Below, one piece after another: positions 3,244 to 63,909 of a stretch of DNA of 64,000 nucleotides. The notes under the pieces were generated by a model. The model was not told the origin of the DNA. It did not search any database and saw only the letters and a list, made by a program, of their open reading frames with translations. Made by a program: the position numbers and the translations under genes. Every line of letters begins with the position of its first letter. Position 1 is the stretch's first letter. Source of the stretch: Escherichia coli (GTDB lineage: Bacteria; Pseudomonadota; Gammaproteobacteria; Enterobacterales; Enterobacteriaceae); NCBI RefSeq assembly GCF_003334405.1, contig NZ_QOWM01000005.1; one strand, written 5' to 3'.

Positions 3244-4200
3244 ATGAACCCGATTGCAGTTACCCTACTCACCGGTTTTTTAGGCGCGGGCAAAACCACC
3301 CTGCTGCGCCATATTCTTAACGAACAACACGGCTACAAGATTGCCGTGATTGAAAACGAATTCGGCGAAGTCTCCGTTGATGATCAACTGATTGGCGACC
3401 GCGCCACGCAGATCAAAACGCTGACCAACGGCTGCATCTGCTGTTCGCGCTCCAACGAGCTGGAAGACGCACTACTCGACCTGCTGGATAATCTCGACAA
3501 GGGCAATATTCAGTTCGACCGTCTGGTCATTGAATGCACCGGCATGGCCGATCCCGGCCCGATTATTCAGACCTTTTTCTCCCATGAGATTTTATGCCAG
3601 CGCTACCTGCTGGACGGCGTGATTGCGCTGGTGGATGCGGTACATGCCGATGAGCAGATGAACCAGTTCACCATCGCCCAGTCCCAGGTTGGCTACGCCG
3701 ACCGTATTCTGCTGACGAAAACCGACGTCGCAGGCGAAGCAGAGAAACTGCGTGAACGCCTGGCGCGCATCAACGCCCGCGCACCGGTCTACACCGTTAC
3801 CCACGGCGATATCGACCTGGGCCTTCTGTTCAACACCAACGGTTTTATGCTGGAAGAAAACGTCGTCAGCACCAAACCGCGTTTCCACTTTATCACGGAC
3901 AAACAAAACGATATTTCGTCGATTGTGGTGGAACTGGATTACCCGGTAGATATCAGCGAAGTTTCCCGGGTGATGGAAAACCTGCTGCTGGAGTCGGCGG
4001 ATAAACTACTGCGTTACAAAGGGATGCTATGGATTGACGGCGAACCTAACCGCCTGCTATTCCAGGGCGTCCAACGCCTCTACAGCGCCGACTGGGACCG
4101 CCCGTGGGGCGATGAAAAACCGCATAGCACGATGGTGTTTATCGGGATTCAGTTGCCGGAGGAAGAGATTCGGGCAGCGTTTGCGGGGTTGAGGAAGTAA
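3244..4200 (+). CDS. yjiA: COG0523/CobW-family GTPase (metal-binding)
   Basis: ORF 3160..4200; start at MNPIAVTLLTGFLGAGKTT (Walker A GAGKTT); CICC metal-binding motif. Confidence 0.9.
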   Translation: MNPIAVTLLTGFLGAGKTTLLRHILNEQHGYKIAVIENEFGEVSVDDQLIGDRATQIKTLTNGCICCSRSNELEDALLDLLDNLDKGNIQFDRLVIECTGMADPGPIIQTFFSHEILCQRYLLDGVIALVDAVHADEQMNQFTIAQSQVGYADRILLTKTDVAGEAEKLRERLARINARAPVYTVTHGDIDLGLLFNTNGFMLEENVVSTKPRFHFITDKQNDISSIVVELDYPVDISEVSRVMENLLLESADKLLRYKGMLWIDGEPNRLLFQGVQRLYSADWDRPWGDEKPHSTMVFIGIQLPEEEIRAAFAGLRK

Positions 4201-5992: not shown

Positions 5993-7225
5993 ATGGCGGG
6001 ATTAAAAGCAACGCATGCCGCCACGCTGTTTTTCCCGATGGAGTTGATTTTGTATGATTTTGCCGCGTACCTGTCGACGGACCTGATTCAGCCGGGGATC
6101 ATTAATGTGGTCCGTGATTTTAATGCCGATGTCAGTCTGGCCCCGGCAGCCGTCAGTCTCTATCTCGCGGGCGGTATGGCGTTACAGTGGCTGCTGGGGC
6201 CGCTTTCCGACAGGATTGGCCGCAGGCCGGTGCTGATTACCGGGGCGCTAATATTTACCCTTGCCTGCGCTGCGACAATGTTCACAACGTCTATGACACA
6301 GTTTCTTATCGCGCGTGCAATTCAGGGCACCAGTATCTGTTTTATTGCCACCGTTGGTTATGTCACGGTGCAGGAGGCGTTCGGCCAGACAAAAGGGATC
6401 AGGTTGATGGCGATTATCACCTCCATCGTACTGATTGCGCCGATTATTGGCCCGCTTTCCGGCGCAGCTCTGATGCACTTTGTGCACTGGAAAGTCCTTT
6501 TTGCCATCATTGCGGTTATGGGGTTTATCTCATTTGTTGGCTTACTGCTGGCGATGCCAGAGACGGTGAAGCGCGGCGCGGTTCCATTTAGCGCCAAAAG
6601 CGTCTTGCGCGATTTTCGTAATGTCTTTTGCAATCGGCTGTTCCTCTTTGGCGCAGCAACCATCTCTTTAAGCTATATCCCAATGATGAGTTGGGTGGCT
6701 GTCTCGCCGGTGATCCTGATCGACGCGGGCGGCTTAACAACTTCGCAGTTCGCCTGGACACAGGTTCCGGTGTTCGGCGCGGTGATTGTCGCGAATGCCA
6801 TCGTGGCGCGTTTCGTTAAAGATCCAACCGAACCGCGCTTCATCTGGCGTGCCGTACCCATTCAACTGGTCGGCCTCGCGCTGTTGATTATCGGCAATCT
6901 GCTGTCACCGCACGTCTGGCTGTGGTCGGTGCTGGGCACCAGTTTGTATGCTTTCGGGATTGGTTTGATCTTCCCGACCTTATTCCGCTTTACGCTTTTT
7001 TCCAATAACTTACCGAAAGGGACCGTCTCCGCATCGCTGAATATGGTGATCCTGATGGTGATGTCTGTCTCGGTCGAAATCGGCCGCTGGCTGTGGTTTA
7101 ACGGCGGTCGCTTGCCGTTTCATCTGTTAGCCGTCGTGGCGGGCGTTATCGTCGTTTTCACCCTGGCAGGATTGCTTAATCGCGTGCGCCAACATCAGGC
7201 TGCCGAGCTGGCGGAGGAGCGGTGA
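5993..7225 (+). CDS. mdtM: MFS multidrug efflux transporter
   Basis: ORF 5966..7225; 12-TMS MFS protein recognisable as MdtM (YjiO); start chosen to give 410 aa. Confidence 0.85.
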
Positions 7226-8661: not shown

Positions 8662-11769
<3,108 letters not shown>

Positions 11770-36850: not shown

Positions 36851-37831
36851 ATGAACGCAATAATATCGCCTGATTATTACTATATTCTTACCGTTGCTGG
36901 TCAGTCTAATGCCATGGCGTATGGCGAAGGACTGCCATTACCGGACAGGGAAGATGCGCCTCATCCCAGAATTAAACAATTAGCGAGATTTGCGCATACG
37001 CATCCCGGAGGCCCGTCATGTCACTTTAACGACATTATTCCACTGACTCACTGCCCACACGATGTTCAGGATATGCAGGGTTATCACCATCCTCTGGCAA
37101 CGAATCATCAAACACAGTACGGCACCGTTGGCCAGGCACTGCATATAGCACGGAAATTACTGCCCTTTATTCCTGATAATGCAGGGGTTCTCATCGTTCC
37201 GTGTTGCCGTGGCGGATCGGCTTTTACCGCGGGCAGCGAAGGAACATATTCAGAACGGCACGGAGCCAGCCATGATGCTTGTCGTTGGGGAACGGATACT
37301 CCGCTATACCAGGATTTAGTCAGCAGAACGCGAGCCGCACTGGCAAAAAATCCGCATAACAAATTCCTCGGCGTATGCTGGATGCAAGGCGAATTTGACT
37401 TAATGACCAGTGACTACGCGTCACACCCTCAACACTTTAATCATATGGTTGAAGCCTTTCGTAGGGATCTAAAACAATACCATTCTCAGCTTAATAATAT
37501 TACTGACGCACCGTGGTTTTGCGGCGATACCACCTGGTACTGGAAAGAAAATTTCCCTCATGCGTATGAAGTTATTTATGGCAATTATCAAAATAATGTT
37601 TTAGCCAATATTATTTTCGTCGACTTCCAGCAACAAGGTGAAAGAGGACTGACGAACGCGCCTGATGAAGACCCGGACGATTTAAGCACGGGATATTACG
37701 GTTCAGCGTACCGGTCACCGGAGAACTGGACGACGGCACTGCGAAGCAGTCATTTCAGCACGGCAGCCCGTCGGGGGATTATTTCTGACAAGTTTGTAGA
37801 AGCAATTTTGCAGTTTTGGCGCGAAAGGTGA
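36851..37831 (+). CDS. nanS: 9-O-acetyl-N-acetylneuraminate esterase
   Basis: ORF 36824..37831 trimmed to MNAIISPDYYYIL for 326 aa. Confidence 0.85.
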   Translation: MNAIISPDYYYILTVAGQSNAMAYGEGLPLPDREDAPHPRIKQLARFAHTHPGGPSCHFNDIIPLTHCPHDVQDMQGYHHPLATNHQTQYGTVGQALHIARKLLPFIPDNAGVLIVPCCRGGSAFTAGSEGTYSERHGASHDACRWGTDTPLYQDLVSRTRAALAKNPHNKFLGVCWMQGEFDLMTSDYASHPQHFNHMVEAFRRDLKQYHSQLNNITDAPWFCGDTTWYWKENFPHAYEVIYGNYQNNVLANIIFVDFQQQGERGLTNAPDEDPDDLSTGYYGSAYRSPENWTTALRSSHFSTAARRGIISDKFVEAILQFWRER

Positions 37832-37838
37832 GCGTTCA

Positions 37839-38489
37839 TTAATTTGATTTATTCGCATCCATCAGCGCTTTTAACTGCTCCGGCGTAAACGGTGGTTTGC
37901 GTCGGTGCAACATCGCATGGCAATTAGGGTACACAGGCAGCAAATCATTAACTGGATCCAGCTGGTAATCCTCTTTAATGGCTGACAGCGGCACCAGGTG
38001 ATGCACATGGATAAAGCCTTCAGCGATATCACCATAGATCTTCACCAGATCAACACCGCATACGTTGCACTGGCATCCATGATGTTCGACCGCTTTATCT
38101 CGGGCCTTTTTATCGCGTTCATAGCGGTTTACTGTCACCTTTATCGCCGCACCTTCAAGGTATGTCTCCTGCGACGGCAACTCATCCGGGAACAGAACGT
38201 CGGCTATGGGAGCCGCAGCGGCTTTATCCAGATGAATATGAAATCCCTGCTCTATGAGTAGCTTGACACATTTAGATTTTATTCCGCCGGTGAAATCCGC
38301 AGGGGTAAATTGCGTCCCCGTCATCAATGTCGCTGCGATGCCAGCAATCGCCTTCGAGGGGTAACGTCGGCCATGATATTCAATCTCATACAACCGCGCA
38401 GGCTGGAACTGATGAGTTTCTCCCGCATCCCATAAATGGATAGCTTCGATGATATACCGCCGCGGAAGATGATCAGGGAGTTTATTCAT
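37839..38489 (-). CDS. HNH-family nuclease with an uncharacterised ~135 aa N-terminal domain
   Basis: 216 aa; C-terminal GCQCNVCG...IHVHHLVPL...NDLLPVYPNCHAMLH is a zinc-ribbon HNH motif; convergent with nanS. Confidence 0.6.
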   Translation of the reverse strand: MNKLPDHLPRRYIIEAIHLWDAGETHQFQPARLYEIEYHGRRYPSKAIAGIAATLMTGTQFTPADFTGGIKSKCVKLLIEQGFHIHLDKAAAAPIADVLFPDELPSQETYLEGAAIKVTVNRYERDKKARDKAVEHHGCQCNVCGVDLVKIYGDIAEGFIHVHHLVPLSAIKEDYQLDPVNDLLPVYPNCHAMLHRRKPPFTPEQLKALMDANKSN

Positions 38490-38568
38490 GGAGAATGTCC
38501 TTATACGTTCTCAGAACAGGCAGCAAAAAAACAAATGAGATCAAGGTAATATATCTTCACTTGCAGGC

Positions 38569-38811
38569 TTGAACAGCAGAAAATTTGCGAGCATGATCGC
38601 AATTATTTCACTGCCAGGGATATCAATAGCTTCCAGTAAATCGCTACAGCAGGCAATTGCCAATATAAAAATCTGGCACAAGGGTGAACAGCGCGCGCCG
38701 CATAAGCCATTGTTATTGCTATACGTATTAGCGGGATACCTGAATGGACATCCGCGCCTTTTCGATTATTGTAGTGGAACAGTCTACGAGGATGCAGTTC
38801 GAAGTGAGTAA
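38569..38811 (+). other. unassigned 80 aa ORF divergent from the HNH gene
   Basis: Contains ...KIWHKGEQRAPHKPLLLLYVLAGYLNGHPRLF...; no confident family assignment. Confidence 0.25.
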
Positions 38812-39255
38812 GTAAAGGTTGCTGGAAACGATCAATGCCGCCATACAATGATTTTTTAGGATCAACAATGAGTAATAAAAACTACGAAAGTCACCGCAAA
38901 GCGATTGTTAGTAAAGGTATACCACCCGCTCTATTAAATAGGCTCACCAATTCGGATGTTCAGGTGATCAATACCTTCTTAACACGAGTGAGCAAACTGG
39001 AACTATCTCAACAAGAGAAAGACTGGATCATAAAAATCATCTCTATGGTTTAGACAATTTCAGCCTTGTAGCCTTTCAAGGGTTTTGTGTGGGTACAAAC
39101 ATTATCGAATCGGGGTATAGCCGCAGCTGTAGCTGTATCCACATCAGTAAGTTGATGTAGGTTGACTTAGGTTGAGCGAAAAATAGCGAAAAGCCTTGTG
39201 TGGCGCGGATTTCAGTCATAAAAAAACGTCCGTTGATGTCTATTGATGTTCCGAT

Positions 39256-39293: not shown

Positions 39294-39770
39294 ATGTGAC
39301 TTAACCTCATGATTTAAAATTGTTAATAATAAACAATATCATCTTATACCAACACAGATACCAACACGAAAAATCACTGGTTTTCGGCATCGAACCAGGA
39401 CAATCAGCTCCTGATTGAGATACCGAGCTCTGTTACTCGTCATCTTCCTCGACAGGCTTCATTGCATCAAGTAGTACTCGCACCATCGCGATAGAACCAA
39501 TCCGGATAAAAGCATCTTCTCCATCTATATCTGTTAACTGATATCGCTCACTTGATGCCGGATAATTGTGTCGATTTGCAGCAGTGAACTCTTTCGTACA
39601 GCCAGAATGCGGCGGATGCTGGTTGAGCAGATAACGTCCGTATTCTCGTTGACCACTTCCGGACGGTAGGCTGTGATATCAGACATAATCGATATTCCTT
39701 TTTGCAGATAAATGAAAATGCCAGCCCTGTTCAGGCTGGCGTCAGTGGAATGAAGTCTGGTGAGTAAGAC

Positions 39771-39968
39771 TCACCGGTTCTGGTGCTGAAGCTGCAGTTG
39801 GCGCAGGGTACGGATATCCTCTCTGGCCTGTTCGATACAGGGCAACAGTGCTGCTGAATCCGTTTTATCCTCATTGTTGTCAAAGATAATTCCCGATTCG
39901 CAGTCGATATTGTCCTGCAGCCACGCAATCAGAATATCCAGTGCGGTTTCCGTGGTTAATGATTTCAT
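39771..39968 (-). CDS. small DUF957-like island protein
   Basis: 65 aa MKSLTTETALDILIAWLQDNIDCESG..., typical last gene of CP4-type toxin-antitoxin modules. Confidence 0.4.
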   Translation of the reverse strand: MKSLTTETALDILIAWLQDNIDCESGIIFDNNEDKTDSAALLPCIEQAREDIRTLRQLQLQHQNR

Positions 39969-39979
39969 GTTGTTCCTGG

Positions 39980-40468
39980 TTACCAGTTGAAAGTGGGTAA
40001 ACCCGGCAGGCATTCAGCGCTGGCATCCAGATGAATGAGACTGACGCCATAACGTCGGGTAAGTGTGATAACCAGACGACGGAACGTTTTTGACAGCCCC
40101 AGGCGTTTAAGCCGCAGAACCGGATATGACCACGCATCGGTACGTAACAGATATCCGCTACCTGTGAAATGAATCCATTCTGATTCACCAACGTCACTGG
40201 TCTGATGCGACAGCGAGTACAGCCAGGCGTTATCCTTTTCCGTGATATGTGCGGTACTGCAGCGTATGCCGGCAAGGGTTGCAAACGGTGGTAGTGTGCA
40301 GGTTGACTGTTGGTCGGATTCCTCCACCACGCGGAGTGAATAACCGTTTTCAGCGACCTTGTTAATCAGTTCAGTGAGATTAACACCATCGACGTCAACG
40401 ACAATTCGCCCCATGTTCAGTGCCTGCACATTAATTCTGTCGGCTTCCAGCATCAGGGAAAGTTTCAT
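39980..40468 (-). CDS. YeeW-like (DUF5983-type) protein
   Basis: 162 aa, start overlaps the toxin gene stop by 4 nt. Confidence 0.45.
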
Positions 40469-40839
40469 CGTTTCTCCGGATGCTTACCCAGGGTAATGTT
40501 ATTTACCGTTCTGTAATTGTCGCGGGTCATCAGGCCGGTCGCCCTGCGAGCCCGGAGGATATCAATACTGTTTATTAACTGAGAGCGGGGACAAGTGCTG
40601 AATCCCGGCTGGTCGGTACGCACCAGCGCGTATTTTTCCACGAGAAAATTCACCGCATCACACAGTGAAATGCCAGCTTCAATATGCTGCTCAATCACAC
40701 GTTCATCGGCGAACGGTGTGTCATTCAGTGTAAGGCCGTAATGCTGGCCCAGTAGTCGGGAGAGCAGAGTCTGCCAGATGGTGACGGGAGACGGGCAGCT
40801 CGATGCCTCCCGTACGTGTGTATCGGGTAATGTTTTCAT
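40465..40839 (-). CDS. CbtA/YkfI/YpjF-family toxin
   Basis: 124 aa; [45 protein letters not shown] highly similar to recalled CbtA. Confidence 0.8.
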
Positions 40840-40928
40840 ACTGAAGGTTTTCCTGATATGCAGAGATGAAAAATGGAAAAGTGGCGTGGTGAAAGCACCA
40901 GGCCGGAGCAGAAGGTTATTCCGGTGGT

Positions 40929-41297
40929 TTACTTTTTCGTTTCGGGCGTCGGATAAACAGCCAGATAAACGTAACCACCGCTACCGAGAGTGTCAGCTTT
41001 GCAGGTCAGACCTTTTGCATACAGCGTGACGGTATGCTGATGGCGGGGATTCAGTTCACCGCTGGTGAGCATGAGTTCCAGTTGTTTCATCAGCAGCGGA
41101 AAGGCCTGGTCCAGGTGGTACGCATCTGCATCGCTGAACAGGCCTCTGATACCGGCGCGGTCGGCAAGGTAATGCAGGCGGTTACCCTCCTGCACCAGAC
41201 GGGCGCCGAAACAGGGCGTCACTGTGCAGGGTAGTCTCCACCAGGGATGGTCGTCATTGTCATCGGGATGCGTTGTCCCGGAAAGTGTGTCTGACAC
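40929..41297 (-). CDS. CbeA/YeeU-family antitoxin
   Basis: ORF 40929..41405 trimmed to GTG start (VSDTLSGTT...) for 122 aa; [34 protein letters not shown]. Confidence 0.8.
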
Positions 41298-41459
41298 GAT
41301 AAAATCCTCACAGAAAATCGGTGAATGATAGTTTAACGATGACGGGTCAGCCGGCGCGCAGACCGGCTTCGGTAAAGGTGTATTCGTTGATGAGCAGGAC
41401 CTCATCCACAGCGGCGTCTGAGCTCAGCCAGTCGTACTCGTTTTCCGGGTGACGGAACA

Positions 41460-41681
41460 TCAGTTCAGGGTGACGCTCATCAGCCGGACATACGGACCAA
41501 AACTGTCCTTACGGCGTTCTGCAAACACGGCCAGCACACCGGGAATATCCTGCACTTCACGACCGGTATACGCTTCAGCACTGCCGTGCCAGCGGTATTT
41601 GCCGGTACAGAACGGAAAAAGACGGGATGCCGGATGCTGACGGTGAATACGCATGGCTTCGCCACGGGTGATGATTTTCAT
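41460..41681 (-). CDS. YeeT-like (DUF987) protein
   Basis: 73 aa MKIITRGEAMRIHRQHPASRLFPFCTGKYRWHGSAEAYTGREVQDIPG... Confidence 0.65.
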   Translation of the reverse strand: MKIITRGEAMRIHRQHPASRLFPFCTGKYRWHGSAEAYTGREVQDIPGVLAVFAERRKDSFGPYVRLMSVTLN

Positions 41682-42149
41682 AGTGGGATACCTCTGAAGA
41701 CAGAAGATAAAAGTGAAAACAGGTGTGATGTGGTTGTGACGGGTTAAAGCAGACCATGTTCGGCAAAGGAGAAAACCTGGCTGCCACCGACTATCAGATG
41801 GTCCGGCACCCGGATAGCTGGAGGTACCGTCATGAGAGTTGAGCAGAATAATTTCAGGGACATGTTCTCCGTTTATCTCTCCGGCCCGCCGCAGACGCAG
41901 CATGTGTTTTGTGTATCCCCGGCGGCCCGGGTCGCGCACACGGGTCTGGCAGGCGAAGAATGGCTGAAAGCCTTCCCGCTGCAGGCTTTCCAGTACGGTG
42001 ATGGTGGGGATGTACGTATAGTTCTGGCTTCGGGACGTGTGTTTATCTTCCCCGAAAATCCCCGGCACATAGTGCATCAGTTCTTCGTGTGTCAGCGGAC
42101 GGTCACGGCGTATCTGGTTCGCATAACCAAAACGACTGGCTAGTCGCAT
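41682..42149 (-). pseudogene. 5' fragment of a DUF932-like (YfjQ-type) gene, frameshifted and fused in-frame to the yeeT-like ORF
   Basis: First ~120 codons of ORF 41460..42149 (MRLASRFGYANQIRRDRPL...LLNSHDGTSSY) look DUF932-like, then lose resemblance. Confidence 0.4.
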
Positions 42150-42560
42150 AATTTGCTCCTTATCGGTGGTTAAGATTTACTGGTGTAATAAATGAAAAAG
42201 CCACGTCTCCCGGAGAAGACGCGGCCTGATGGGTGAAATGAATGACGTTTATTGTCTGAGAAGACCGTCACTGGCGAGCCGCGTATTAAGCACCTTTCCG
42301 GCATCGGGTTCAGAATTCCGGCAGCGCCAGCGTCGCTGACCTTCCGCGTTGCGGATAACCCGACGGAAATGCATTCCCGGGTCATCCTGGATAAACACAT
42401 TGCGGTAAGCGGTTATGACAGCAACCGCCTGCCCGTATGAGAAAGATCCTTCAGCCAGGACATACTCTGTGTAACCCGGCATATCTGTTTTCTCCTGATA
42501 AATAAAAAGCCTCTGCCACGCGTTGTGACAGAGGCTGAAGCATGAAACTGACTTCAGGGA

Positions 42561-58837: not shown

Positions 58838-59935
58838 ATGGATTACAGCATGGCTAGTGTTGATGCAGATTACTGCTACTCGTTTCCGGCTATACGTGGC
58901 ATTCAGGCTGGTCGCCCTTTCTATATCGCCACATGCCCGATGCGTATCATCCCGAAAATATTCAGTTTTGATGAAAATGATGTGCCACCGGAATTACGCG
59001 CACAGCGCACGCTAAATAAATCGCGCATTCCCGAGATGGTACGTTATTTGTTGGAAAACCCTAAAGATTATGTGTTTTCAGCTCTGACGGCTTCCATTGC
59101 CGTAGACGTTCAATTTGATGAGTTTCCAGGTTCTAACAATCTGGGGACGTTGTGCGTACCAATGGATGCGCAAATTCTAATCAATGATGGACAACATCGC
59201 CGTAAAGCGATTGAAGACGCTTTAGACGCTCGTCCGGAGCTGGGCCAGGATAATATCCCGGTGTTGTTCTTTGTCGATGAAGGCTTAAAGCGTAGCCAGC
59301 AGATGTTCGCCGATCTGAATAAATACGCCATTCGCCCCAGCCCATCGCTGGCGTCGCTATACGATCATCGCGATGCCTGTTCGAATCTGGCGCGTTATCT
59401 GGCAATGTCAGTAGAGCCGTTTGTTGGGATGACGGAACTGGAAAAATCTGGCATTAGCCAGAGGTCGAATAAGCTATTTACGTTGAGCAGCATCAAGCAG
59501 GCTACCCGCGCATTGTTGGGCAAAGATCCCAAAGAGGATAACTTTGAGGAATGCACCCACATTGCTACCCAATATTGGCAGGCTATTTTTAGTGTAATGC
59601 CTGATTGGCAATTAGCGGCTAAAAAGGAAGTTTCACCGGTTCAATTGCGACAAGATTATGTTCACGCTCATGGCATTGGATTGCAGGCACTTGGGCAACT
59701 AGGATATACCCTGCTGACGGATTATCCTGAGCAATGGCCGGAGAAAATCGCTGCACTCAAAACATTTAACTGGCGTAGAAACAATCCGGACCTCATCAAG
59801 CGAGCGATGCAGCATGGGAAGTTGAGTAAAACCAGTACCGCGATCCAGTTAACCTGCAATGCGCTAAAAACCGCACTCTCAATTCCCCTCACTCCTGAAG
59901 AACAGGAGCTTGAAGCTCAAATGGTTGTCTCATGA
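58838..59935 (+). CDS. dndB: DndB-like DGQHR-domain protein (regulator of DNA phosphorothioation)
   Basis: 365 aa with exact DGQHR motif (LINDGQHRRKAIEDAL); first gene of a four-gene coupled operon. Confidence 0.8.
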   Translation: MDYSMASVDADYCYSFPAIRGIQAGRPFYIATCPMRIIPKIFSFDENDVPPELRAQRTLNKSRIPEMVRYLLENPKDYVFSALTASIAVDVQFDEFPGSNNLGTLCVPMDAQILINDGQHRRKAIEDALDARPELGQDNIPVLFFVDEGLKRSQQMFADLNKYAIRPSPSLASLYDHRDACSNLARYLAMSVEPFVGMTELEKSGISQRSNKLFTLSSIKQATRALLGKDPKEDNFEECTHIATQYWQAIFSVMPDWQLAAKKEVSPVQLRQDYVHAHGIGLQALGQLGYTLLTDYPEQWPEKIAALKTFNWRRNNPDLIKRAMQHGKLSKTSTAIQLTCNALKTALSIPLTPEEQELEAQMVVS

Positions 59936-61554
59936 GTAAATTAGTTCAGGCCTATGATTTGGCCGAATACGAAGATTTTATTAATCAGGAACAGTTCGCC
60001 GGACGTCCTCTGGCCGAATATGTTGCTGAGGTTCAACGAATTTATTGTGCGGATAAACGTCCGTGGGTGATTGGCTACAGCGGTGGGAAAGATTCTTCCG
60101 CTGTGATCACGCTGGTGTATCTGGCCTTGCTCGGCCTGCCCCCGGAAATGCGCAGCAAAGATATTTTTGTGGTGTCGTCCGATACGCTGGTCGAAACACC
60201 GGTAGTCGTGGATCTGATTAAGAAAACGATGTTGCAGATTGAGGCGGGAGCGAAGCGTAACGGCTTGCCGATCACTCAACACGCGGTAACGCCTAAAACG
60301 AATGAAACCTTCTGGGTCAATTTGCTGGGGAAAGGTTATCCGGCTCCAACTCGTAGTTTCCGTTGGTGCACTGAGCGCATGAAAATCAACCCGGTGAGTG
60401 ACTTTATTAAAGATAAGGTCAGCCAGTTTGATGAAGTCATCGTCGTACTTGGTTCGCGCAGTAGTGAAAGTGCTTCTCGTGCGCAGGTGATCGCAAAGCA
60501 CAAGATTGATGGATCACGCCTTGCCCGGCATACCACGCTGGCAAATGCATTCATCTATACCCCCATTGATACCTGGGATGTAGAAGATGTCTGGAAGCTG
60601 CTGCGGGGCGCGTTCCGCTATGCCCCTGAAGATATCGACGAGTGGGAAAGCCCGTGGGGTGGAAACAACCGTCCACTGTGGACGTTGTATATGGATTCTT
60701 CCGCACAGGGTGAATGTCCTCTGGTAATTGATGATAGTACCCCTTCCTGCGGCAACTCGCGTTTTGGCTGTTGGACCTGTACCGTTGTCACTAAAGATAA
60801 GGCGATGGAAAGCCTGATCAAAAACGGTGAAGAATGGATGTCTCCGTTGCTGAAATATCGTGATCTGCTGGCATTTACCACCGATCCGGTGAATAAAGAC
60901 ACGTTTCGAAACTATAAGCGCCGTACTGGTAAGGTGAGCTATCAGTACGCTAAAGAAAGTGATGAGCCGGGGGCTGAGCGTAAGCATGTTCCAGGTCCTT
61001 ACTGGCTAAAATACCGTCAGCAATGGCTCAAAGAATTGCTGGAGATAGAGCGCGATTTGAATGCTCAAGGCCATACCATTACGTTAATTACCAAACCAGA
61101 GCTGCATGCGATTCGTCAGGAGTGGTTGAAAGATCCTAATGAACCAGACTGGTATGACACGCTGCCGGGTATTTACCGTGAAGTGTATCAACAGGATTTA
61201 GACTGGGTGGTGGACGATCAGTCGCGCTTTGATGCCAGCGATGCAGATCTGTTGGTGCAGATAGCGCAGGGATTTGACGTTGTGCCTGAAATGGTGATGA
61301 AACTCATCGAGCTGGAAGTTTCAATGGAAGGCTTAAGCCGTCGTCAGGGCATTTTTGACAAACTTGGCACGATTTTAAAGCAGGACTGGGGCACTCTCGA
61401 AGAAATTGAACAACAACAGGTCACTCTGCAAAAACGAGTTGAACGAGATATTCATCAGGAAGAACTTACAAAGCTGGAAACTGAACTTCAGGTTTTACAG
61501 CGCAGAATTGTTGATGCCAGTGAATCCTCGTTACTGATTGGGGAGGAGAAATAA
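59932..61554 (+). CDS. dndC: DndC-like PAPS-reductase-fold sulfurtransferase
   Basis: 540 aa; PP-loop SGGKDSS; cysteine cluster CGNSRFGCWTC; ATGA overlap with dndB. Confidence 0.85.
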   Translation: MSKLVQAYDLAEYEDFINQEQFAGRPLAEYVAEVQRIYCADKRPWVIGYSGGKDSSAVITLVYLALLGLPPEMRSKDIFVVSSDTLVETPVVVDLIKKTMLQIEAGAKRNGLPITQHAVTPKTNETFWVNLLGKGYPAPTRSFRWCTERMKINPVSDFIKDKVSQFDEVIVVLGSRSSESASRAQVIAKHKIDGSRLARHTTLANAFIYTPIDTWDVEDVWKLLRGAFRYAPEDIDEWESPWGGNNRPLWTLYMDSSAQGECPLVIDDSTPSCGNSRFGCWTCTVVTKDKAMESLIKNGEEWMSPLLKYRDLLAFTTDPVNKDTFRNYKRRTGKVSYQYAKESDEPGAERKHVPGPYWLKYRQQWLKELLEIERDLNAQGHTITLITKPELHAIRQEWLKDPNEPDWYDTLPGIYREVYQQDLDWVVDDQSRFDASDADLLVQIAQGFDVVPEMVMKLIELEVSMEGLSRRQGIFDKLGTILKQDWGTLEEIEQQQVTLQKRVERDIHQEELTKLETELQVLQRRIVDASESSLLIGEEK

Positions 61555-61555
61555 C

Positions 61556-63556
61556 GTGCTCATTAAACAGCTGGTATTACATAATTTTCGGGTATTTAAC
61601 GGTACACATACCATTGATCTGGCACCCAGAAAGCGTCCGCACGATTTGAATCCACGACCTATTGTGCTGTTTGGTGGTTTAAACGGCGCAGGGAAAACGT
61701 CTATCCTGTCGGCGATCCGCATAGCGTTGTATGGACGACTGGCGTTTGGGCTAGCGACTCAACAGCAAGAGTATATCGAACAACTCAGTGCATTGATTCA
61801 TAACGGCGCGTACTATATTGAGCAGCCGGAAGAAGCATCTGTAGAACTGACGTTTACCTATAATAAAGGCGGTCATGAGGCCGAATTTACCGTTACGCGA
61901 ACCTGGAAAAAGGGGAAGAGGGACCGCCTTTCTCTGCAACAGGATGGGCAGCCACTCAGTGAGCTGGATTACGATCAGTGCCAGGGATTTCTAAATGAGT
62001 TAATTCCGCATGGCATTGCTGATTTGTTCTTTTTCGATGGCGAGAAAATTGCAGAACTTGCTGAGGACGAATCCGGTAATATTTTACGTACTGCCGTACG
62101 ACGCTTATTGGGGCTGGATCTCATCTCTAAACTGCGTAACGATTTAATGATTTTTGTTAAGCGTCAGCAATCCAGCCAGCTAGCAAGTTCTCAGCAACAA
62201 CAGATTGCAGAGCTTGAAAAACAGAGTAAAGAATTAGCCTGCCAGACAGAAGCACTGCTGGAAAGCGCCGATTTTGCCAAATCGCGGATTGAGTTTCTAT
62301 CTAAAGATATAACCCATTATGAAGGCTTGCTAAATGCTCAGGGGGGCGCTTTTGCCCAGACTAAAGCGCAGGAAAAACAGAAAGTCGAAACGCTGCTAAA
62401 AGATAAAGAACATCTGGAAAAAGCACTGAGACAAGAATGCGATGGCTCGCTACCTTATGCGCTTGCGCCCACTATTTTGTCTCATTTGCTGCAACAAATT
62501 GCTGATGAAACGCAAATTAAACAGGCAAAAAGCTTTGAAAAAGAGCTGAGCCAGTTTTTAACGCAACTCAGAAATGATATTGCATTTCGTTCTGCGGGGA
62601 CTGGCAAAATAGCAGCTGAAGCGATTACCGATAATCTAAAAGATTATATGGCAACGAAACCAAAAGGTGATTTGCTCTTTGATATCTCTGAGCGTGAAGC
62701 AGGTATGCTTCAACAGTCTATTGAGATAGATAGTAAAAGAGCATGGCAGCGTTTCGAGCTTTATCGCACACAGTTATCTGAGATTGAACAACAGTTAGAA
62801 CAAGCGGCTGCTAATATTGCCCGCGCTCCTGAAGATGAGCAGCTGATGGATCTCTTTGAAAAATTACGTGACCTGGATAGGCAGCGCGAAGCCCAATTGC
62901 AGAAATATCGGTCATTGCTAGAAGATGCTAAACGTAAAAAACAGCAGCAACTGGATTGTGTTCGTCAGATTCAAAAAGCGCATGACGCCGCTCGTTATCA
63001 GCACAGTTATAGCAGTGCGTTTAAGAATGCTCAGGAAACGATAAATTTACTCGATCGCTACAGCGATGTATTAACCCAGGCTCGGGTAAAAACGCTGTCG
63101 ACAAACTTCGAGCTTGCTTACCGTAAGTTGGCTCGCAAAGAGGATTTACAACTTAGTGCGCATATCAACCCTCAAACGTTTGATGTTGAATTAATTGATG
63201 AGAATGGCTCAGTAATTAACCGTAAGTTACTTTCTGCTGGTGAAAAACAGATTTATGCAATTGCTATTCTTGAGGCGCTGGCGAAAACCTCTGGCCGTGA
63301 TTTACCAGTGATCATTGATACACCATTGGGTCGTCTGGACTCTCAACATCGAGATAAATTGATTAATCACTACTTCCCTGAAGCCAGTCATCAGGTTGTG
63401 TTGCTTTCTACCGATACTGAAGTAGATGAACGTTATTTTGTTGATCAGTTGCGTGATGATATCTCTCATGCTTATGAGATTGTGTTTAATGCACATACTA
63501 AGTCATCAACGCTGAAGCCTGGTTATTTCTGGGAATTAACTAAGGAGGCTATCTGA
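61556..63556 (+). CDS. dndD: DndD-like SMC/ABC-type ATPase
   Basis: GTG start after SD gggaggag; Walker A GGLNGAGKTS; long coiled-coil middle; C-terminal DTPLGRLD signature-like segment. Confidence 0.8.
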   Translation: MLIKQLVLHNFRVFNGTHTIDLAPRKRPHDLNPRPIVLFGGLNGAGKTSILSAIRIALYGRLAFGLATQQQEYIEQLSALIHNGAYYIEQPEEASVELTFTYNKGGHEAEFTVTRTWKKGKRDRLSLQQDGQPLSELDYDQCQGFLNELIPHGIADLFFFDGEKIAELAEDESGNILRTAVRRLLGLDLISKLRNDLMIFVKRQQSSQLASSQQQQIAELEKQSKELACQTEALLESADFAKSRIEFLSKDITHYEGLLNAQGGAFAQTKAQEKQKVETLLKDKEHLEKALRQECDGSLPYALAPTILSHLLQQIADETQIKQAKSFEKELSQFLTQLRNDIAFRSAGTGKIAAEAITDNLKDYMATKPKGDLLFDISEREAGMLQQSIEIDSKRAWQRFELYRTQLSEIEQQLEQAAANIARAPEDEQLMDLFEKLRDLDRQREAQLQKYRSLLEDAKRKKQQQLDCVRQIQKAHDAARYQHSYSSAFKNAQETINLLDRYSDVLTQARVKTLSTNFELAYRKLARKEDLQLSAHINPQTFDVELIDENGSVINRKLLSAGEKQIYAIAILEALAKTSGRDLPVIIDTPLGRLDSQHRDKLINHYFPEASHQVVLLSTDTEVDERYFVDQLRDDISHAYEIVFNAHTKSSTLKPGYFWELTKEAI

Positions 63557-63909
63557 TGCTCCCGAATCGAATGGCGCTTAGCCGTCAGACTGAAGATCAG
63601 CTTAAAAAGCTTAAAGGGTATACTGGGATTACACCCAATATTGCTGCCCGGCTAGCATTTTTCCGCTCGGTGGAGAGTGAGTTTCGCTATTCACCTGAAC
63701 GAGATAGTAAGAAGCTGGATGGTACGCTGGTGCTGGATAAAATTACGTGGCTGGGGGAGACACTACAAGCTACAGAATTGGTGCTGAAGATGCTTTATCC
63801 ACAATTAGAGCAAAAGGCGTTGATTAAGGCATGGGCTGCTCATGTTGAGGATGGGATTGCGGCATTGAGAAATCATAAAAGTTTAATTAGCTTATTAAAT
63901 GCTATATAA
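63556..63909 (+). CDS. dndE: DndE-like small protein
   Basis: 117 aa, start overlaps dndD stop; position and size match DndE. Confidence 0.7.
   Translation: MLPNRMALSRQTEDQLKKLKGYTGITPNIAARLAFFRSVESEFRYSPERDSKKLDGTLVLDKITWLGETLQATELVLKMLYPQLEQKALIKAWAAHVEDGIAALRNHKSLISLLNAI

Follow-up and report, generated by a model that had tools for sequence, protein, structure and literature searches.

A ScoMcrA-type head domain on a McrA-type HNH nuclease of Escherichia coli, beside the remnant of an EcoWI-like gene

The enzyme ScoMcrA (Sco4631, PDB 5ZMM) of Streptomyces coelicolor is a Type IV restriction enzyme of 561 amino acids (aa), which depends on phosphorothioate (PT) and on 5-methylcytosine (5mC). 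It contains a small, flexibly attached head domain, the function of which is not known, and its sulfur pocket lies in a separate sulfur-binding domain (SBD), where it is made up of H116, R117, Y164, P165 and A168, the last three belonging to a YPFWA stretch (PMC6224610). The enzyme EcoKMcrA (PDB 6GHC), which is encoded in the e14 prophage of Escherichia coli, depends on 5mC or 5-hydroxymethylcytosine. It dimerises through its HNH domains, with a domain-swapped crossover at residues 179-191, and the dimer has one channel for DNA; separate DNA-binding sites lie in the N-terminal domains (PMC6182155). In EcoWI and other SBD-HNH enzymes an N-terminal reader and a C-terminal HNH nuclease are combined in one chain, and for EcoWI the PT dependence has been shown experimentally (PMC7461809). 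The SRA-HNH, EVE-HNH and DUF3427-HNH enzymes (the TagI, ScoA3IV and VcaM4I group) follow the same logic of an exchangeable sensor joined to an HNH nuclease (PMC6765204). Here, a gene for a protein of this general kind is compared with these systems. It is located on a stretch of 64,000 nucleotides of E. coli DNA (RefSeq assembly GCF_003334405.1, contig NZ_QOWM01000005.1; the whole stretch is called "the window" below), it will be called the head-HNH gene, and it has the following parts:

37839-38489, minus strand: complete head-HNH coding sequence (216 aa plus stop), taken from the list of open reading frames (ORFs), with 100% identical matches annotated in E. coli genomes
38220-38477, minus strand: ScoMcrA_N "head" domain (PF26345), residues ~5-90, with the motif RRYP(P/S)KAI(V/A)G (Y43, P44, K46, A47)
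38115-38219, minus strand: variable linker followed by the pre-HNH segment EG-x5-V-x-VNRYERD, residues 91-125, from the alignment to EcoKMcrA 177-271
37890-38114, minus strand: McrA-type beta-beta-alpha-metal (HNH) core, residues 126-200, from the family profile, PHROG and Foldseek
37929-37931, minus strand: codon 187, TAC (Tyr), an allele-specific change of TGC to TAC at the third zinc-ligand Cys

The region 37839-38489 is a genuine, conserved gene. The encoded protein is identical to the RefSeq entry WP_001037966.1 ("HNH endonuclease"), which is present in many E. coli genomes, and a database search with a limit of E<=1e-3 retrieved 1054 homologues, the majority with a length of about 210 aa. 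On the E. coli chromosome the gene is placed tail-to-tail with nanS, near fim-nanCM and at the edge of a variable island. An earlier reading made from the sequence only (the sequence-only reading) had proposed an ORF with a C-terminal HNH nuclease at this position, and this was confirmed by the ORF list, the homologues and the profile matches to EcoKMcrA and ScoMcrA. The product is a head-HNH nuclease of the McrA/ScoMcrA kind and thus an uncharacterised member of an already known kind. It is probably a stand-alone nuclease of two modules, a ScoMcrA-type head (residues ~5-90) and a McrA-type HNH cassette (~100-200), and in effect ScoMcrA minus SBD and SRA.

The comparison with the described enzymes revealed shared and differing parts in each case. 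Head and HNH nuclease are common to ScoMcrA and the head-HNH protein. However, the latter has only 216 aa, it is devoid of the SBD and the SRA domain, which represent the known specificities of ScoMcrA, and one zinc-ligand Cys is replaced. With EcoKMcrA it shares the type of HNH cassette, including the segment that aligns with the crossover, and a small two-domain layout with an N-terminal targeting domain (predicted here) and a C-terminal HNH domain, which dimerises in EcoKMcrA. In contrast, the N-terminal domains are unrelated, because EcoKMcrA has the NEco fold, and the N-terminal domain of the head-HNH protein gave no match to 6GHC. EcoWI has the same single-chain order and occurs at the same hotspot, with an EcoWI-like gene adjacent to the head-HNH gene in the ancestral locus, but both its reader (SBD, PF26340) and its nuclease (HNH_2, PF13391) differ from those of the head-HNH protein. 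The SRA, EVE and DUF3427 sensors have base-flipping pockets for modified bases, whereas the head domain has neither a recognised pocket nor a solved complex with DNA.

In the sequence-only reading the N-terminal ~135 aa had been regarded as unrecognised. This did not hold, as three approaches identified the ScoMcrA head domain. A phmmer search against PDB aligned residues 24-86 with residues 29-92 of ScoMcrA (5zmm_A; E 9.6e-4), a family profile of 59 members aligned its positions 6-89 with ScoMcrA 4-94 (i-E 7.5e-7), and the domain PF26345 (ScoMcrA_N) is carried by the 99% identical homologue P0001 and by nearly all other homologues. The last result comes from precomputed Pfam annotation of the homologues; a direct Pfam-A scan of the head-HNH protein, with a library that appears to be older than PF26345, yielded a weak HNH match (E 0.006) and no match to the N-terminus. 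The N-terminal domain has the fold of the solved ScoMcrA head, and its topology is alpha-beta-beta-alpha-alpha-beta. The same reading had also noticed a YPxxA string and compared it to the sulfur-pocket residues of PT-sensing domains. The string is present and such a pocket does occur in the SBD, but in the head-HNH protein Y43-P44-S-K-A47 is a signature of the head family and aligns with "LYDSKAIAG" of ScoMcrA, in which Asp replaces Pro. The comparison of the N-terminal domain with the SBD, which had been proposed as a check, was negative throughout. The homologues carry PF26345 and not PF26340 of the SBD, and a local SBD hidden Markov model (HMM) matched the remnant of a neighbouring gene (see below) but not the head-HNH protein. 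The NCBIfam model PT-DNA_restrict reached 17.4 bits compared to a cut-off of 180, and this match (E 0.0019) covered residues 65-149, a segment other than YPSKA. An SBD fold was not found in the N-terminal domain, and an HK/HR-P motif, corresponding to "APHKP" of the neighbour, was not found in the head-HNH protein. As judged from these comparisons, the N-terminal domain is a ScoMcrA head that lacks the sulfur pocket of the SBD.

The C-terminal part was assigned with the same family profile, which matches EcoKMcrA 177-271 (E 2.5e-5) and ScoMcrA 456-534. In agreement with this, the top Foldseek matches of the nuclease were ScoMcrA and EcoKMcrA, and HNH families of PHROG matched residues 124-199. 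The core is preceded by the segment EG-x5-V-x-VNRYERD-x2-AR, in which E112, G113, N121, E124, R125 and R130 are invariant in the family alignment. It aligns with EcoKMcrA 177-191 and thus covers the domain-swapped crossover, and the profile matches to EcoKMcrA and ScoMcrA include the piece Y-x-RD-x2-AR. Residues 92-125 have a low predicted local distance difference test score in the monomer model, probably because they form a segment of the crossover type. The protein has the catalytic residues H163/H164, N189 and H195, and neither these positions nor H191 vary in any of the 59 sequences.

The zinc site differs from the family. A [CxxC]2 zinc site is described as a defining part of such HNH domains (PMC3592412). 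In the window allele it consists of C141, C144, Y187 and C190, and thus only three of the four Cys are in place. Position 187 is a Cys in 57 of the 59 homologues, and also in the E. coli ETEC1730 and ETEC1746 alleles and in the remnant of the gene in E. coli W/KO11FL. The "clear zinc-ribbon HNH" C-terminus that had been proposed was therefore right with respect to the HNH domain, while the zinc ribbon is short of one Cys. The C187Y allele is probably destabilised or inactive, and an inactive enzyme would fit its occurrence in genomes that phosphorothioate their own DNA, including that of E. coli B7A. All three full-length E. coli alleles are common, each being present on at least 1000 contigs. 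Some of the E. coli alleles are damaged at differing conserved positions: the ETEC1730 allele (3350-4000 of that locus) has retained Cys187 but has an R122C exchange in the near-invariant NRYERD motif, and frameshifted variants of 205 aa (P0002, P0006) are in circulation.

The HNH cassette turned out to be a module that is used with many different N-termini. A scan of a genome collection yielded 80 loci, most of which matched residues ~95-215, i.e., the cassette alone. The same cassette was found behind 26 unrelated N-terminal sequence clusters (66 proteins/genomes). When 25 cluster representatives were scanned, DpnI_C (1.4e-16), DUF3427 (2.3e-7) and a weak EVE match (1.2e-3) were detected, in one representative each, and the remaining representatives had no Pfam match. 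DpnI_C is a reader of methylated DNA. DUF3427 and EVE are readers of modified DNA as well (PMC6765204). The occurrence on 26 N-termini indicates that the cassette is the shared effector of a modular family, and that the head occupies the sensor slot. The protein has the architecture of a Type IV enzyme, i.e., a single-chain nuclease with a separate, predicted DNA-targeting domain, no cognate methyltransferase and a defence-island context. The members of the head-HNH family are most likely restriction enzymes of a Type IV-like, modification-dependent kind that belong to defence islands. The proposal of a single-chain HNH fusion of the Type IV kind in the sequence-only reading is in agreement with the McrA/ScoMcrA-type cassette, its fusions to methyl-DNA readers and the defence hotspot. 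By analogy with EcoKMcrA, two copies would dimerise via their HNH domains with the participation of the pre-HNH "crossover" segment, and the dimer would form one central DNA-cleaving channel. Each head would then be a separate and flexibly tethered module that is predicted to target the nuclease to DNA. The combination of head and HNH domain, dimer mechanism, Type IV-like function and a probably damaging C187Y exchange is the explanation that we favour, with reasonable but not high confidence.

The head domain clearly is a restriction or defence module. When 1.84 billion representatives were searched with a profile, it was detected in 3905 clusters. Among the best 150 of these clusters, 12 contained plain head-HNH proteins, 44 had extra domains together with the same cassette, and the other 94 had different C-terminal regions or ended soon after the head (21). 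Foldseek and PADLOC, the latter applied to ten of 52 long head-containing proteins, placed the head on EVE, YDG, DUF3427, DUF3578/McrB-type AAA+, NOV_C, methyl-directed restriction endonuclease and candidate defence proteins, and it was also found as a stand-alone protein of ~95 aa. The homologues P0090 and P0094 contain a DUF3427-like or YDG-like segment, the head and the HNH domain in a single polypeptide. In PADLOC the head-HNH protein itself was matched only weakly by the mREase_IV models for ScoMcrA (E 1e-4) and EcoKMcrA (E 2.5e-4), and thus it is no catalogued defence system of its own. Candidates for a conserved surface of the head are R41, R42, K46, K73 and K76 together with H26, F28, Y34 and Y43. 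The head is a widespread module of restriction-type proteins, and its role could be learned most simply from the two-domain head-HNH family.

Several genes and remnants in the neighbourhood are needed for the interpretation of the locus:

38626-38775, plus strand: remnant of an EcoWI-like SBD-HNH gene, first ~48 codons, with the sulfur-pocket motif APHKPLLLL and a start codon changed from ATG to ATA (RefSeq pseudogene; SBD HMM)
38490-38625, no strand: divergent intergenic region of 136 bp, comprising the upstream region of the SBD gene and, for the HNH gene, the 5'-untranslated region (5'-UTR) with a ribosome-binding site (AAGGA, 8 nt ahead of the ATG) (sequence)
37750-37839, minus strand: ORF of 29 codons, ATG overlapping the HNH stop codon (TAATG), antisense to the 3' end of nanS (RefSeq WP_418267963.1)
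36851-37831, plus strand: nanS, full-length ORF of 326 codons, sharing 319 identities with K-12 NanS over 327 aligned positions (326 residues plus stop)
58850-63909, plus strand: dndBCDE phosphorothioation cluster as context (ORFs, annotation of near-identical genomes, dndC search)
9598-9696 of the K-12 locus: ythB, scar of the HNH gene

The remnant of the SBD gene is divergently oriented to the head-HNH gene at a distance of 136 bp, and it is labelled in RefSeq as a truncated "phosphorothioated DNA-binding restriction endonuclease". The SBD HMM recognised it with an E value of 7e-28, but only over HMM positions 2-54. Its start is ATA compared to ATG in the intact copies of E. coli W/KO11FL and ETEC1730, and from base ~144 onwards it diverges into unrelated island DNA. 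Intact SBD-HNH_2 proteins of 290 aa are encoded at the same site in two strains, in E. coli W/KO11FL together with a head-HNH gene cut to 105 nt and in ETEC1730 together with an intact one. The identity of the 290-aa KO11FL protein with EcoWI itself could not be confirmed from papers, and hence it is called "EcoWI-like". When plasmids carry the modification made by the B7A dnd cluster, enzymes of this type have been shown to leave no transformants at all (PMC7461809).

The sequence-only reading had argued that a PT-dependent nuclease would conflict with a dnd cluster about 20 kb away. Such a cluster is indeed present at a distance of 20.4 kb, and the incompatibility is real. However, it concerns the neighbour, which is already destroyed, and not the head-HNH protein, and thus the apparent paradox of a PT-dependent nuclease in a dnd-positive genome is removed: the sulfur reader is the dead EcoWI-like gene. 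The dndC genes of the window and of E. coli B7A are 100% identical, and B7A has the identical head-HNH protein, the same SBD remnant and a dnd cluster that makes PT DNA. The same arrangement with a truncated SBD gene is present in 779 complete E. coli genomes and the B7A-type dnd cluster in only 15, which shows that the truncation is no specific response to dnd. The total number of complete E. coli genomes was 5426, and a dnd type that is 86-88% identical was present in 192 of them (SE11, 55989). Beyond the window, in a near-identical genome (26582-28590 of that locus), dndBCDE is followed by genes for an "ATP-dependent nuclease" and a DUF262 protein instead of dptFGH.

Traces of the head-HNH gene could also be found in K-12. 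The 29-codon ORF has a homologous counterpart in the last 27 residues of YthB (b4802) of K-12. In K-12 the long-range homology stops at the stop codon of nanS, and an alignment with short words revealed a scar, in which the 5'-UTR of the HNH gene with its ribosome-binding site is kept (88% identical) and the initial five HNH codons (MNKLP) are joined to sequence past the HNH stop codon, resulting in the 32-aa YthB. The small K-12 protein YthB is thus translated from the leftover start of a head-HNH nuclease gene. Both ribosome profiling of initiation complexes and chromosomal tagging have detected it (bioRxiv 10.1101/511675), and this indicates that the promoter and the translation start of the HNH gene are functional. 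The site close to nanS and nanM carries different cargo in different strains, including McrBC-like and Type I restriction-modification genes in E. coli W, Zorya II in O157 and BREX in ETEC1746. In SE11 dndBCDE-dptFGH has taken the place of nanS and of the HNH and SBD genes. PT writers and PT-dependent cutters therefore alternate at one locus, as the hotspot carries dnd-dpt or EcoWI-like genes. In other genera Mrr-like, methyltransferase or other defence genes were found beside distant head-HNH loci.

Several points weigh against the favoured explanation. The Tyr187 allele, which is presumed to be damaged, is, as mentioned, common. No characterised two-domain head-HNH member was found in the literature, and full-text searches with the names of the domain retrieved only the ScoMcrA structure paper. 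A scan of 37700-38900 for promoter and terminator consensus sequences revealed no minus-strand promoter, and the counts were within the expectation from shuffled sequences and thus uninformative. The mean net charge of the head domain is only about +1.6, and DNA binding is hence not obvious. Lastly, the head may be an accessory (DNA-binding) module instead of a modification sensor, because it often co-occurs with a bona fide reader (SBD and SRA in ScoMcrA; P0090 and P0094). The converse idea, which we regard as tentative and rather doubtful, is that the head is an unrecognised reader of a DNA modification or another feature, and that it generally directs McrA-type HNH nucleases, restriction endonuclease-like ATPases and other defence nucleases to their targets, with a split two-gene counterpart of ScoMcrA together with SBD-HNH as a variant. 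If this were true, the head-HNH proteins of ~210 aa would be minimal enzymes for a direct readout of the head specificity. Among the other explanations the most serious is that the E. coli gene is under relaxed selection, and that the window allele has no current function and is what remains of a formerly active Type IV cassette, the hotspot being worn away by deletions on both sides. The C187Y and R122C exchanges, the frameshifted or truncated variants (P0002, P0006 and P0056) and the distribution of the gene are in accordance with this view: at least 80% of its length is kept in only 1239 of 3151 genomes with any match, E. coli W has retained the 105 nt and K-12 only the five codons, and SE11 has lost it entirely. 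However, the reading frame is intact and identical across many genomes including distant lineages, the ribosome-binding site and the start codon are conserved and active in K-12, the ETEC1746 allele, WP_001037977.1, is intact at every conserved position, and orthologues with 57-70% identity in other genera have kept all invariant residues. We therefore regard the relic as possible, but not as likely.

It is improbable that the head-HNH gene and the divergent SBD-HNH gene form a split ScoMcrA, i.e., a two-gene PT-dependent system that has been orphaned here by the loss of the partner. ScoMcrA combines head and SBD in one chain, E. coli ETEC1730, Klebsiella aerogenes, three Citrobacter and one Enterobacter all have the divergent pair, and on an integrative conjugative element a 57% identical head-HNH gene lies 4 kb from another SBD-HNH gene. 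Nevertheless, EcoWI needs no partner for the restriction of PT plasmids in vivo, and it is a homodimer that cleaves in vitro (PMC7461809), and the nuclease families of the two proteins differ (HNH and HNH_2, respectively). Among the 5426 complete E. coli genomes the HNH gene (>=80%) was present in 1239 and the SBD gene in 1707, and both together in 326 compared to ~390 expected, so that a positive association was not observed. In addition, seven more distant head-HNH loci had no SBD within 10 kb, as determined with an HMM that is narrow (five enterobacterial SBDs) and may miss divergent SBDs. Still less probable is that the N-terminal domain itself senses PT via YPxxA and that the nuclease must be inactive in a dnd-positive host. 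The spacing of Y43-P44-x-x-A47 equals that of Y164-P165-x-x-A168 in the SBD, a weak match to PT-DNA_restrict exists, the gene is linked to SBD genes, and C187Y could explain the tolerance in B7A, but the results with the SBD profile, fold and pocket described above argue for a head domain. The last alternative, a role outside of defence as a homing, mobile-element or phage-packaging HNH protein or as a non-specific nuclease toxin, is equally remote. HNH domains are common in such roles, phage HNH families of PHROG matched residues 124-199, and one paralogue is found on an integrative conjugative element. Yet the phage families match the HNH core only and leave the head unmatched, an adjacent immunity or antitoxin gene was not seen, and among proteins of solved structure the nearest relatives, ScoMcrA and EcoKMcrA, are restriction enzymes. 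The locus has no intron, intein, terminase or cos context, and the homing-endonuclease and phage-HNH readings were rejected on the basis of this genomic context.

Some additional observations were made at this and at related loci. In near-identical genomes RefSeq calls the equivalent of nanS an incomplete "sialate O-acetylesterase" pseudogene, which looks like an annotation inconsistency. The paralogue on the E. coli integrative conjugative element (P0036, 57% identical, hundreds of contigs) is situated between an AbiEi/HTH region and TraI. It lies beside an ArdC-like anti-restriction gene and 4 kb apart from a second, divergent SBD-HNH_2 gene (locus positions 6001-6654 and 10744-11616). On the other side of the SBD remnant, the island continues with the following cargo:

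39700-42200, minus strand: CP4-type cargo, encoding DUF957, DUF5983, the CbtA/YeeU toxin-antitoxin system, DUF987, a JAB-domain protein, an antirestriction protein and DUF932

Past this CP4-type cargo an IS66 element and the fec operon are present.
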